From a virus (Duplodnaviria; Heunggongvirae; Uroviricota; Caudoviricetes), in IMG/VR virus record IMGVR_UViG_2690316131_000018: a DNA stretch of 29,394 nucleotides; one strand, written 5' to 3'. Under the pieces are notes generated by a model. It did no database searches. It was not told the DNA's origin and worked only from the letters and a program-made list of their open reading frames with translations. Positions 26,179 through 28,135 of this stretch are shown piece by piece; the first letter of the stretch is position 1, and the number at the start of each line of letters is the position of its first letter. The position numbers and the translations under genes are program-made.

Positions 26179-26427
26179 ATGAAAGGTGCATTAGGTAAGA
26201 AGGAACTCCTGGCGGTGGTGCCACTGTCATGGAGCACTATCGATCGTATGGAGCGCGCAGGGGAATTTCCTAAACGCTGGTATATCACCGATAAACGCTG
26301 CGCATGGAACCGTGATGAAGTTGAGCGTTGGCTTGATGAACGTCAGGCAGCAAGTCCGGCAGAGTTCCAGGGTAAAAAACCTCCTGTTCAGCAACGTGTA
26401 TATCGTCCCGTGAGCAACGCGGCATGA
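26179..26427 (+). CDS. AlpA-family HTH protein (regulator or excisionase-like)
   Basis: 82-aa ORF; LSWSTIDRMERAGEFPKRWYITDKRCAWNRDEVERWL matches the AlpA/Xis-type HTH pattern. AGAGAGG ribosome-binding site. Confidence 0.6.
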   Translation: MKGALGKKELLAVVPLSWSTIDRMERAGEFPKRWYITDKRCAWNRDEVERWLDERQAASPAEFQGKKPPVQQRVYRPVSNAA

Positions 26428-26540
26428 GTGTGCTGCTAAGGCACTGGAGCAAATGGTCAGGATGGTACTTATTCCTGGCCTCTGTTTCAGCATGGCTTTA
26501 TCTGCTGGCATTAATTTTCAGAGAGGGTTGGATTAAGTGA
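26424..26540 (+). CDS. possible small hydrophobic peptide (38 aa)
   Basis: ATG overlaps the AlpA-like stop (ATGA). My translation, MSVLLRHWSKWSGWYLFLASVSAWLYLLALIFREGWIK, has one transmembrane-like segment. Unsupported otherwise. Confidence 0.25.
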   Translation: MSVLLRHWSKWSGWYLFLASVSAWLYLLALIFREGWIK

Positions 26541-26836
26541 GAAAGTTAAGCCGACTTGAAAAATATCACATGAACAAGGTTTCAATGCGCAGCCCTTCAA
26601 AGGTTGTTGCCGTTACTCCTGCGGCGATAGAGATCGAAAAACGCGCGATTGAAAGAGAGAAAAAAGGGCAGTTCCGCATTGCCGCTCACCTTTGGCTTCA
26701 GTGTATGGATGTTGCTTCTGGTGATGTTGAGCGTGCAAGGATCGCGGTTCGCAGGGACCAATGTATCACAAAAGGTAACGGCCTTCGCCGTGGCGACTAT
26801 AGCGGCATAGGATGTTGTGGGGTGGTTTATGACTAA
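26537..26836 (+). CDS. PerC-like transcriptional activator family protein (tentative)
   Basis: 99-aa ORF with GTG start and GAGAGGG upstream. EREKKGQFRIAAHLWLQCMDV resembles the PerC/Pch signature from memory. Confidence 0.4.
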   Translation: MRKLSRLEKYHMNKVSMRSPSKVVAVTPAAIEIEKRAIEREKKGQFRIAAHLWLQCMDVASGDVERARIAVRRDQCITKGNGLRRGDYSGIGCCGVVYD

Positions 26837-27479
26837 GAAATACACACTAATCTATGCAGATCCACCCTGGGTATACCGGGACAAAGCCGCAGATGGTAAT
26901 CGCGGTGCCGGTTTTAAATATCCGGTTATGAGTGTGCTGGATATCTGCCGCCTTCCTGTGTGGGATTTGGCCGATGAAAACTGTCTGTTGGCCATGTGGT
27001 GGGTGCCAACACAACCACTCGAAGCGCTAAAAGTTGTTGAAGCCTGGGGATTTCGCCTTATGACCATGAAGGGCTTCACGTGGATAAAATGTGGTAGTCG
27101 ACAACCAGATAAACTGGTTATGGGTATGGGACACATGACTCGCGCCAATAGTGAAGATTGCCTGTTTGCGGTAAAGGGAAAACTACCTCCGCGCATTAAT
27201 GCAGGGATCGTTCAGTCATTTACCGCACCGCGGCTTGAGCACTCAAGAAAACCAGATGTCGTTCGTGAAAAACTTGTGCAATTGTTAGGCGATGTTTCTC
27301 GCATTGAACTGTTCGCCCGCCAGTCGTCTCATGGCTTCGATGTTTGGGGTAATCAGTGTGAAGACCCGGCAGTGCAACTACACCCTGGATACGCGTTGGA
27401 TATTGCCAGATTAACAAATGCATTCAGCAATGCTCCGCTGTCACCAACAGACAACCAGGGGCGGGAGCGTGCAGCATGA
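26817..27479 (+). CDS. MT-A70-family DNA N6-adenine methyltransferase
   Basis: Catalytic DPPW motif in [10 protein letters not shown]. Probable start is the ATG at ~26829 with GGGGTGG upstream. Stop overlaps the phosphatase start. Confidence 0.75.
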
Positions 27480-28135
27480 ACCTATATCAACGCATCAATG
27501 GCGCTGACTGGTGCAATATCTTCGTCGTCGGCGATCTGCATGGGTGCTACACGCTGCTGATGAACGAACTCGACAAAGTTTCATTCGACCCGGCGCGCGA
27601 TTTACTTATTTCCGTTGGTGACCTTGTTGACCGCGGCGCTGAAAACGTCGAATGCCTGGATTTGATTACTATGCCGTGGTTCCGAGCTGTTCGTGGCAAC
27701 CATGAGCAGATGATGCTGGATGCACTGGTCAACGGCGGAAGTTTCGGACATTGGATGTCAAACGGCGGTGGATGGTGGCACCAACTTGATTCTGAGCAGG
27801 ATGTGCAACTCAAATACCTTCTGCCAAAGATTACCAACCTCCCGATGATTATCGAACTGGTTACCGGCAATAAGAAGGTCGTCATCTGTCACGCAGACTA
27901 CCCGCACAACGAATACGCATTCGATAAGCCAGTACCAGAAGAAATGGTGATATGGAATCGTGAGCGGGTTAGCGACGCGCAGGACGGTATTGTCTCGGAG
28001 ATAACCGGTGCCGATTTGTTCATCTTCGGTCATACGCCAGCACATCACCCACTGGTGTATGCAAACCAGATGTACATCGACACCGGCGCAGTGTTCTGCG
28101 GAAATCTGACGCTTACCGAAGTCCAGGAAGGATAG
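27476..28135 (+). CDS. Ser/Thr protein phosphatase, lambda NinI-like
   Basis: Near-identical blocks to the lambda phosphatase from memory ([53 protein letters not shown]). Confidence 0.85.

Follow-up and report, generated by a model that had tools for sequence, protein, structure and literature searches.

A five-gene cluster in an ε15/phiV10-like prophage of Escherichia coli as the probable tail of the early-left operon, ending in an exchangeable cargo slot

Do the five small genes that lie between the recombination genes and the integrase gene of this prophage form one accessory cluster, acting as a unit on the host or against its defences, or are they a regular part of a phage operon? The initial annotation of the window, by which we mean the whole stretch of 29,394 nucleotides that was analysed, took the former view and named an AlpA-like protein, a small peptide, a PerC-like protein, an MT-A70 methylase and a NinI-like phosphatase. 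All five open reading frames were confirmed on the + strand of 26179-28135, and profile searches bore out each of the five names (Table 1). We put a probability of roughly 80% on the reading that this stretch belongs to the early-left operon of an ε15/phiV10-like prophage beside guaA in E. coli and makes up the promoter-distal tail of that operon. Among the five genes, the only swappable cargo is the last one, the phosphatase gene.

Table 1. Features of the window from the repressor gene to the integrase gene.
Feature	Coordinates	Strand	Size	Basis or remark
Repressor gene	23009-23593			upstream of the candidate PL-type promoter
Repressor-gene terminator	23614-23633			precedes the candidate PL-type promoter
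Candidate early-left (PL-type) promoter	23685-23713	+		TTGACA-17-AATCAT, consensus match only
GC-rich stem-loop	26138-26156	+	7 bp	between recT and the AlpA-like gene; no T-run
AlpA-family winged-helix protein	26179-26427	+	82 aa	Pfam PF05930, phrog_66
Single-pass membrane peptide, ε15 gp32 homologue	26424-26540	+	38 aa	phrog_17484
PerC-family small protein, GTG start, ε15 gp31 homologue	26537-26836	+	99 aa	Pfam PerC, phrog_868
MT-A70-family (beta-class) N6-adenine methyltransferase, orphan	26829-27479	+	216 aa	Pfam MT-A70
Expression socket (GGGAG Shine-Dalgarno and ATGA stop/start), left boundary of the slot	27463-27479	+		junction alignment
Lambda-PP-type (NinI-like) Mn-dependent protein phosphatase	27476-28135	+	219 aa	1G5B, phrog_246
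P4-type tyrosine integrase, convergent with the operon	28138-29394	-		Arm-DNA-bind_3, Phage_int_M, Phage_integrase

The window is a Uetakevirus (ε15/phiV10-like) temperate podophage prophage of E. coli, inserted beside guaA; in the near-identical genome that we compared, guaA adjoins the integrase gene of the prophage. The early-left gene order of Uetakevirus is found in the window from the repressor gene through the convergent int, and the layout is common to the early-left operon of phiV10 and ε15 (gp37 to gp28), which runs in the order repressor, two small genes, exonuclease, RecT, stem-loop, AlpA-like gene (gp33), peptide (gp32), PerC-like gene (gp31), MT-A70 methyltransferase, cargo slot, convergent P4-type integrase and attP. 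The five-gene cluster is already known and annotated in this common type of E. coli prophage. Over its whole length it is 98-99% identical at the DNA level to phages vB_EcoP_PAS61 (OQ921333) and BP9 (PP488543), and it occurs at 98-99% identity, under identical product names, in 142 complete E. coli genomes, the APEC O1 and ST131 prophages among them; phiV10 is 98% identical to the cluster with the exception of the phosphatase gene. In PAS61, BP9 and the APEC O1/ST131-type prophages the five genes and the integrase have the order and the overlaps seen in the window, and the annotations read AlpA/transcriptional regulator, PerC family, MT-A70 family methyltransferase and serine/threonine protein phosphatase (NinI). 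Within the cluster there is essentially no difference between these prophages and the window, whereas the exonuclease/RecT module upstream varies among some of the genomes. The resemblance to ε15 amounts to 79% DNA identity and is limited to the stretch from AlpA to PerC. Roughly one complete E. coli genome in ten has a prophage of this type, and the cluster is its standard early-operon tail, of slight significance beyond a correct annotation. An Rfam scan gave a tRNA as its sole match, and a literature search returned no experiments on any of the five proteins in Uetakevirus-type phages.

How would these genes be expressed? A simple consensus scan of 22800-29394 yielded a single promoter-like site on the + strand, the candidate PL-type promoter, and its position matches the operator region annotated in ε15. 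The same scan gave neither promoter-like nor terminator-like sites on the + strand within 24000-28135; it is blind to weak or non-sigma-70 promoters, from which expression in the lysogen could still occur. Transcription probably starts at this repressor-controlled promoter near 23.7 kb, and the transcript would pass the two small genes, the YqaJ-type exonuclease, RecT and the GC stem-loop, continue through the five coupled genes and end up meeting the convergent integrase gene. Because they would be transcribed from a repressor-controlled early promoter, the five genes are expected, judging by the operon layout, to be switched on by infection or induction and to be silent in the lysogen.

The tight coupling that had been noted for the five genes is real. 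Neighbouring genes overlap by 4-8 nt at all junctions, and the overlaps read from the sequence are, in order, ATGA, GTGA, ATGACTAA (8 nt) and ATGA. Co-orientation and translational coupling of this kind might suggest a coherent accessory module, acquired as cargo, whose five genes act together in host interaction or anti-defence; methyltransferases and phosphatases are classes frequent among phage accessory genes, and the nin region of an Ewingella lambdoid prophage has both. The distributions of the genes largely refute this proposal, however, and we find it scarcely credible. The AlpA, peptide and PerC genes are always linked throughout the genus, the methyltransferase gene lies between two variable slots and is found alone in about 30 other, unrelated prophage contexts, and the phosphatase gene is present in only about a quarter of loci that are otherwise at least 98% identical. 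PADLOC assigned the generic MTase_II model to the methyltransferase (5e-77) and nothing else, with no match for the AlpA, peptide, PerC or phosphatase genes. The supposed functional unit is therefore not supported as such, since its parts differ in distribution and only the phosphatase is variable.

The order AlpA-peptide-PerC-MT-A70 is annotated in ε15, BUCT554 and TL-2011b, recurs identically in prophages of Superficieibacter, Pseudescherichia, Kluyvera, Scandinavium, Citrobacter and Klebsiella, and is kept in phages or prophages of Salmonella, Enterobacter, Citrobacter and Klebsiella. Because this order is conserved across genera, we regard these four genes as backbone and not as cargo, and their dN/dS values against orthologues (0.03-0.24) indicate that they are selected genes and not chance open reading frames. 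We read the overlaps as a sign of co-translation in a long early operon, to which the recombination genes also belong, and not of a dedicated module. As a by-product, the analysis clearly tells the backbone (AlpA, peptide, PerC and MT-A70) apart from the cargo in the slot before int.

This single slot has three interchangeable alleles, among them the phosphatase. Among 80 IMG/VR loci with a methyltransferase at least 98% identical to that of the window, 54 have a DUF1382 gene before int, 20 the phosphatase and six orf83 together with Ant; by a separate count, 546 records matched at 95% identity or more, and 142 genomes among them carry the phosphatase allele. In phiV10 the slot contains a 64-aa DUF1382 gene and no phosphatase, and in ε15 it holds a gene annotated as “serotype conversion: transacetylase repressor”. 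The bounds of the swap are exact, beginning at the common ATGA and stopping within the final int codons. On the left, phiV10, HEMP4, TL-2011b and the window are identical up to ATGAA and diverge right after it, and the left junction is alike in 20 of 20 loci with the phosphatase allele. The GGGAG Shine-Dalgarno sequence sits within the 3' end of the methyltransferase gene, and every insert in the slot would inherit this sequence and the ATG embedded there. On the right, where the integrase stop lies 2 nt from the phosphatase stop, the last five integrase codons are part of the swapped segment, and the junction alignment shows an integrase C-terminus of ...KWMEDSNK in the window versus ...KWMAGE in phiV10 and HEMP4. 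The integrase of phiV10 is annotated in its record as INT_P4. With its three natural alleles (DUF1382, phosphatase and Ant) in near-identical prophages, the slot provides a series that could be used to probe the role of lambda-type phosphatases in phages.

What do the backbone genes contribute? The AlpA-like protein scores 24.2 bits with the Pfam family Phage_AlpA, for which the cut-off is 21. It also matches the PDB entry 8c3t, “AlpA family phage regulatory protein” (1.8e-11), and phrog_66 “excisionase and transcriptional regulator” (2e-16); a search for literature on entry 8C3T found nothing. Its dN/dS against orthologues is 0.05-0.20. The gene is linked to that of the P4-type tyrosine integrase, which lies 1.7 kb downstream. 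Directly upstream, the stem-loop has a minimum free energy of -17.3 kcal/mol (z = -2.86), with none of 200 shuffled sequences folding equally well, and ε15 is annotated with a “stem-loop; transcriptional pausing” at the matching position. AlpA-family proteins can serve as transcription activators: the AlpA of CP4-57 in E. coli was originally described as an activator of intA, and that of Pseudomonas aeruginosa is an antiterminator. Both precedents, together with the conserved GC stem-loop directly upstream of the gene, would fit a protein that is not an excisionase and that either activates int or carries transcription past the stem-loop to the distal genes. We consider this doubtful. The stem-loop precedes alpA, which leaves AlpA able to act on it only after a first round of transcription; moreover, the genes adjoining int include no other excisionase candidate, and in prophage CP4So AlpA is the excisionase and is required for excision (PMC5148205). 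On account of the family match, the linkage to a P4-type integrase and the CP4So case, the AlpA-like protein is probably an excisionase or directionality factor, and/or a regulator, for the adjacent integrase. The excisionase role and the activator or antiterminator role are not mutually exclusive.

The start of the 38-aa peptide gene forms the ATGA overlap with the AlpA stop. The peptide matches phrog_17484 “membrane protein” (4.7e-27) and is conserved in seven relatives, being kept in ε15 and in relatives from Citrobacter, Kluyvera, Superficieibacter, Scandinavium and Enterobacter. Its pN is 0.12-0.26 versus a pS of 0.43-0.74, and its dN/dS is about 0.2.

For the PerC-like protein, the initial annotation had made family membership in a profile search one of its two points of possible refutation, and the match is above the cut-off: 30.1 bits to Pfam PF06069 (cut-off 22.6), with residues 35-80 aligned to profile positions 5-50 of 90. 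The protein also matches phrog_868 (6.5e-62), and a match to the ANR family stayed below threshold (23.6 bits, cut-off 32). Pairwise BLASTP with PerC of the enteropathogenic E. coli (EPEC) plasmid pMAR2 gave 40% identity over 60 aa (E 2e-10); a tblastn search of plasmids including pMAR2/pEAF at E ≤ 1 gave no pMAR2 match. The more likely start is the GTG at 26537, since the first 11 residues of the protein read from it are conserved in ε15 and BUCT554. In an AF2 model with a mean pLDDT of 71.9, residues 28-80 form a three-helix core (pLDDT 82-90), and a fold search of the PDB with this model gave no significant match, the best being MIT/TPR-like three-helix bundles at E ~0.5. As a weak hint from the model, the protein may be a small three-helix regulator that works by protein contacts rather than as a classical DNA binder.

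Could this protein regulate host virulence loci, as PerC-family proteins of prophages can? It is truly homologous to EPEC PerC, and it has the Pfam PerC family and a helical core of 60 residues in common with PerC of pMAR2 and with Pch of EHEC prophages. Pch/PerC proteins activate LEE1, and PchE represses curli (PMC6265319, PMC4764244), which would speak for a Pch-like regulator of the LEE or of other horizontally acquired loci that benefits the lysogen. We judge such a role to be very improbable. Unlike PerC and Pch, the PerC-like protein is encoded by a backbone gene in phages of hosts without the LEE: orthologues with 64-85% identity are found in phages and prophages of Salmonella, Enterobacter, Citrobacter and Klebsiella, always at one operon position. 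Compared with EPEC PerC it has an N-terminal extension of 30 aa and lacks the C-terminal 20 aa, its gene lies inside a repressor-controlled operon, and LEE activation is limited to group-1 Pch proteins (PMC6265319). From these sequence comparisons virulence regulation appears unlikely as the main role of the protein, and its primary role is probably phage-intrinsic. The label “PerC family” on prophages of this type should not be taken to denote a virulence regulator.

The methyltransferase aligns with Pfam PF05063 over positions 1-172 of 172 (7.6e-22; 78.5 bits at a cut-off of 23.9). Loss of catalytic residues had been named as the other point of possible refutation, and the DPPW motif is retained: YADPPWVY aligns with the DPPW of Tetrahymena MTA1 and IELFAR with its LEIFAR, and WGNQ follows IELFAR in the same segment. 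We take the IELFAR and WGNQ segments to be involved in SAM binding, from what is known of METTL3. The start is more likely the ATG at 26829, as annotated in phiV10 and PAS61, than the GTG upstream at 26817, which would give 220 aa. The dN/dS of the gene is 0.03-0.09. In ε15, a small DUF1317-like gene that is not present in the window stands between the PerC and methyltransferase genes. We regard the enzyme as an orphan because profile searches gave no match to endonuclease families in the flanking genes (PerC-like, phosphatase and integrase) and PADLOC gave only the MTase_II model. Phage DNA that is being replicated, and possibly host DNA, may be its substrate before packaging, and such methylation would blunt restriction in the next host.

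M.EcoGI and M.EcoGII of E. coli O104:H4, which are prophage-encoded, non-specific adenine methyltransferases and silent in the lysogen (PMC5778455), resemble the enzyme of the window in being prophage-borne orphan beta-class adenine methyltransferases. Identity with them is nevertheless ruled out: these are 349-aa DPPY enzymes, in contrast to the 216 aa, the DPPW motif and the Pfam MT-A70 assignment seen here, and because they belong to a different family no specificity can be transferred from them. A literature search for the specificity of the methyltransferase of phiV10 or of other MT-A70 prophage enzymes found nothing relevant.

A NinI-type phosphatase was described here outside the nin region, and this is indeed where it sits, as the last early-left gene and next to int. 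It matches Metallophos (1.4e-15), phrog_246 “NinI-like” (8.5e-108) and the lambda phosphatase structure 1G5B (6.9e-100), with 67% identity to the latter over 217 ungapped residues. All 11 residues checked are conserved (D20, H22, D49, D52, R53, R73, N75, H76, H139, R162 and H186), and we assume the metal-ligand and catalytic roles that they have in the 1G5B structure. As judged by sequence, the phosphatase is catalytically intact.

Is the phosphatase a gene of lysogenic conversion? For the E. coli phosphatases PrpA and PrpB, dephosphorylation of stress-signalling proteins has been proposed, and a moron that alters host physiology, for example in this way, would be in line with the gene annotated as a serotype-conversion factor in the ε15 slot, with the intact phosphatase allele in 20 of 20 sampled loci and with its wide occurrence among pathogens, including the APEC, ST131 and O26 lineages. 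We hold this to be improbable. The consensus scan gave the phosphatase gene neither a promoter-like site nor a terminator of its own, the common ATGA joins its start codon to the methyltransferase stop and its Shine-Dalgarno sequence is inside the methyltransferase gene, so that its expression should track the repressed early operon; as an autonomous moron it was rejected on these grounds. The protein also falls below the NCBIfam equivalog cut-offs of NF008516 and NF007425 (265 versus 326 bits and 220 versus 332 bits), which we take to be the models for PrpA and PrpB, the chromosomal protein-serine/threonine phosphatases of E. coli.

Broad phosphorylation by the T7 kinase has recently been reported to disarm bacterial defences. 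There is a slim chance that the phosphatase allele is an anti-defence or counter-kinase device, made early once infection or induction has taken place and erasing Ser/Thr/Tyr/His phosphorylation, and that the slot serves as a counter-defence socket. If so, the kinases countered would be those of host kinase-based defences or of a competing phage, and the slot with its DUF1382, phosphatase and orf83+Ant alleles would be a rapidly exchanged socket with a fixed ribosome-binding site and start in the methyltransferase gene. A literature search on the biological role of NinI found nothing relevant.

Lambda PP itself (NinI/orf221) is encoded in the nin region, which lies between the replication genes and Q, in contrast to the phosphatase of the window, which is coupled to the methyltransferase at the early-left end and abuts int; position is not a biochemical criterion. 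The nearest relative outside this prophage type is a phosphatase gene in a lambdoid prophage with the order NinE-phosphatase-NinG, to which the DNA identity is 78.7% and confined to the coding sequence. The relatives in GB2005 and Ewingella sit in nin regions, and from these comparisons the phosphatase gene was evidently taken from the nin region of a lambdoid phage.

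Profile searches confirmed all the names given by the initial annotation (AlpA-like, PerC-like, MT-A70, NinI-like phosphatase, integrase), and the five co-oriented plus-strand genes span exactly 26179-28135, as it had stated (see table). Successive genes meet at ATGA, GTGA, ATGACTAA and ATGA junctions, in that order. For the AlpA, peptide, PerC and methyltransferase genes, dN/dS is 0.03-0.24 against orthologues from ε15, from BUCT554 and from prophages belonging to six other genera; because non-synonymous divergence lies far under synonymous, even the 38-aa ORF is a real gene.

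Features of the window and of related prophage loci
Feature	Sequence	Position	Strand	Profile match
Promoter-like site	window	23685-23713	+	
Recombination module	window	24198-26129		
GC-rich hairpin	window	26138-26156		
AlpA-like gene	window	26179-26427	+	Phage_AlpA 24.2 bits (cut-off 21); PHROGs excisionase/regulator 2e-16
38-aa membrane peptide gene	window	26424-26540	+	PHROGs membrane protein 4.7e-27
PerC-like gene	window	26537-26836	+	PerC 30.1 bits (cut-off 22.6); PHROGs transcriptional activator 6.5e-62
MT-A70 methyltransferase gene	window	26817/26829-27479	+	MT-A70 78.5 bits, entire profile; PHROGs DNA methyltransferase 1.1e-120
Phosphatase gene	window	27476-28135	+	Metallophos 58.7 bits; PHROGs NinI-like phosphatase 8.5e-108
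P4-type integrase gene, 418 aa, convergent	window	28138-29394	-	Arm-DNA-bind_3, Phage_int_M, Phage_integrase domains
tRNA-Arg(UCU)	window	13721-13797	+	
272-aa ORF	window	14020-14838	+	phrog_4780 (unknown function)
DndB-like (DGQHR) protein, second slot	L095 (Citrobacter werkmanii)	3937-5001		
PD-(D/E)XK-like protein, second slot	L096 (Klebsiella pneumoniae)	4492-4995		
203-aa unknown, second slot	L088 (Superficieibacter)	4393-5001		

The cluster is already known, since nearly identical copies have repeatedly been deposited with annotation. Phages vB_EcoP_PAS61 and BP9 match the cluster at 98-99% identity, phiV10 does so at 98%, phosphatase gene excepted, and the AlpA to PerC stretch is 79% identical in ε15 and its Salmonella relatives. 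At an identity of ≥95%, matches occur in 546 records of complete E. coli genomes; the entire cluster is present in 143 of these (142 genomes), where the same product names are already annotated. In APEC-O117H42 a near-identical prophage adjoins guaA and carries the full complement of podophage genes, namely those for portal, major capsid protein and terminase together with the replication and repressor genes.

The window follows the gene order annotated in phiV10, PAS61, ε15, TL-2011b and BUCT554, which runs from repressor, two small genes, exonuclease and RecT through the AlpA-like, membrane peptide, PerC-like and sometimes DUF1317 genes to the MT-A70 methyltransferase, a variable gene, the convergent integrase and attP. 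The sole plus-strand promoter-like site in 22800-29394 comes directly after the repressor gene and its terminator, and neither promoter-like nor terminator-like sites were found on the plus strand in 24000-28135. On the basis of this layout and scan, we interpret the five genes as the distal end of the early-left operon rather than a cluster apart. Between recT and the AlpA-like gene lies a conserved GC-rich hairpin that lacks a T-run (z = -2.86), at the place where the ε15 record annotates a transcriptional 'pausing' stem-loop. The recombination module (YqaJ-type exonuclease, 299 aa; RecT, 340 aa) resembles those of ε15 and the Klebsiella prophage (88-91% amino acid identity to the latter), whereas the phiV10 record annotates a fusion of RecE and RecT, and another, shorter pair is present in PAS61 and APEC-O117H42. 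DNA homology to phiV10 begins only at ~26126, which makes the window an intra-genus mosaic.

Do the tightly coupled genes form one functional unit, as was initially proposed? A single functional accessory module is contradicted by the differing distributions of its parts. Using the methyltransferase as query and one genome per species, we found the order AlpA-PerC-MT-A70-int (convergent) in Superficieibacter, Pseudescherichia, Kluyvera, Scandinavium, Citrobacter and Klebsiella, with the peptide detected between AlpA and PerC in 5/7 loci; the methyltransferase also occurs by itself in ~30 other prophage contexts. In the related prophages the PerC-methyltransferase interval is a second variable slot, containing nothing, DUF1317, or a DndB-like, PD-(D/E)XK or 203-aa unknown protein, and the methyltransferase-int interval varies as well. 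In the window the second slot is empty and the flanking genes overlap by 8 nt. Overall, the comparison shows ordinary mosaicism of phage genomes, with four genes belonging to the backbone, a variable slot on either side of the methyltransferase, and three alternative alleles in the slot before int.

These alleles were surveyed in 80 IMG/VR loci with a methyltransferase ≥98% identical. The slot contains DUF1382 in 54, the phosphatase in 20, and an 82-aa ORF (orf83) with an AntA-type antirepressor in 6. The left swap boundary is exact: up to and including the GGGAG Shine-Dalgarno and the ATGA stop/start all alleles share one sequence, and divergence sets in with the following bases. The right boundary falls within the final int codons (28138-28155), and the integrase ends in ...KWMEDSNK with the phosphatase and in ...KWMAGE with DUF1382 or Ant, so cargo exchange alters the C-terminal tail of the integrase too. 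The phosphatase allele is intact in each of its 20 loci, always with identical junctions, which points to a single acquisition. Only 2 nt separate the stop codon of the phosphatase (TAG, ending at 28135) from that of the minus-strand integrase (28138-28140), whereas in ε15 a spacer of 155 bp, with an annotated RNase III site, occupies this boundary. Because no terminator lies between the stops (28133-28140), early-left transcription should run antisense into int.

The phosphatase aligns without gaps to lambda protein phosphatase (PDB 1G5B) at 67% identity, and 11/11 metal-binding, phosphate-binding and catalytic residues checked are conserved; it scores under the cut-off of both NCBIfam protein-serine/threonine phosphatase equivalog models. 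It has nin-region affinity: beyond this phage group, its nearest relative at the DNA level (78.7% identity, coding sequence only) is flanked by NinE and NinG in a lambdoid prophage of the lab strain GB2005. The classical lambdoid nin region of an Ewingella sp. prophage (L103 4549-7773) comprises NinB, MT-A70, several small ORFs, a lambda-type phosphatase and NinG; its methyltransferase and phosphatase are 66% and 49% identical to those of the window, so temperate phages that are unrelated carry both types among their nin-type accessory genes. A role of the phosphatase in lysogenic conversion is disfavoured, as the gene has neither promoter nor terminator of its own. Recent T7 kinase work forms the backdrop to the idea that this allele might counter a kinase-based defence or a rival phage's kinase, which we consider improbable.

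The methyltransferase retains the catalytic DPPW motif and an IELFAR...WGNQ segment; among solved structures, ciliate MTA1 and METTL3 are closest to it. Its flanking genes gave no endonuclease family match, and the searched literature contained no report of its specificity. Identity with M.EcoGI or M.EcoGII was rejected, those being 349-aa DPPY enzymes.

The PerC-like protein shares 40% identity with EPEC PerC over a 60-residue core, but differs in a 30-aa N-terminal extension and in lacking the PerC tail; its subfamily (≥56% identity) is confined to Enterobacteriaceae. A host-virulence role is disfavoured, because the gene is conserved in phages of hosts without LEE; published work shows that, among the Pch proteins of EHEC prophages, LEE is activated by those of group 1 only (PMC6265319). 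A sub-threshold NCBIfam ANR (AraC negative regulator) match covers the same residues as the PerC domain, and there is a weak Pfam MIT match. The AlphaFold model, built from 23 sequences, is a three-helix bundle (core pLDDT 82-90) with no significant match in the PDB, the best being MIT/TPR-like bundles (E ~0.5). It may be that small regulators of the PerC and ANR types have a common fold and act alike through protein contacts.

Upon infection or induction, one long message would be made from the repressor-controlled promoter. The AlpA-like protein, which matches a solved AlpA-family protein (1.8e-11), would provide directionality or regulation for the integrase; for CP4So, a P4-like prophage, experiments have shown AlpA to be the excisionase (PMC5148205). 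A purely regulatory function is possible and compatible with an excisionase role. The PerC-like protein and the peptide would have a phage-intrinsic role, and the methyltransferase may modify phage DNA before packaging, lessening restriction in the next host. The last-slot occupant, whichever it is, would be expressed by using the ribosome-binding site and the start codon fixed at the methyltransferase gene end.

Elsewhere in the window, a tRNA-Arg(UCU) is followed by a 272-aa ORF of low GC content (~39%), lying between the portal and terminase genes on the opposite strand. Its N-terminal region is hydrophobic, a long coiled coil is present, and its Pfam and PADLOC matches are weak and coiled-coil only. 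APEC-O117H42 differs here, with a 'Gp49 family protein' at this position, so that it looks like a second cargo slot.
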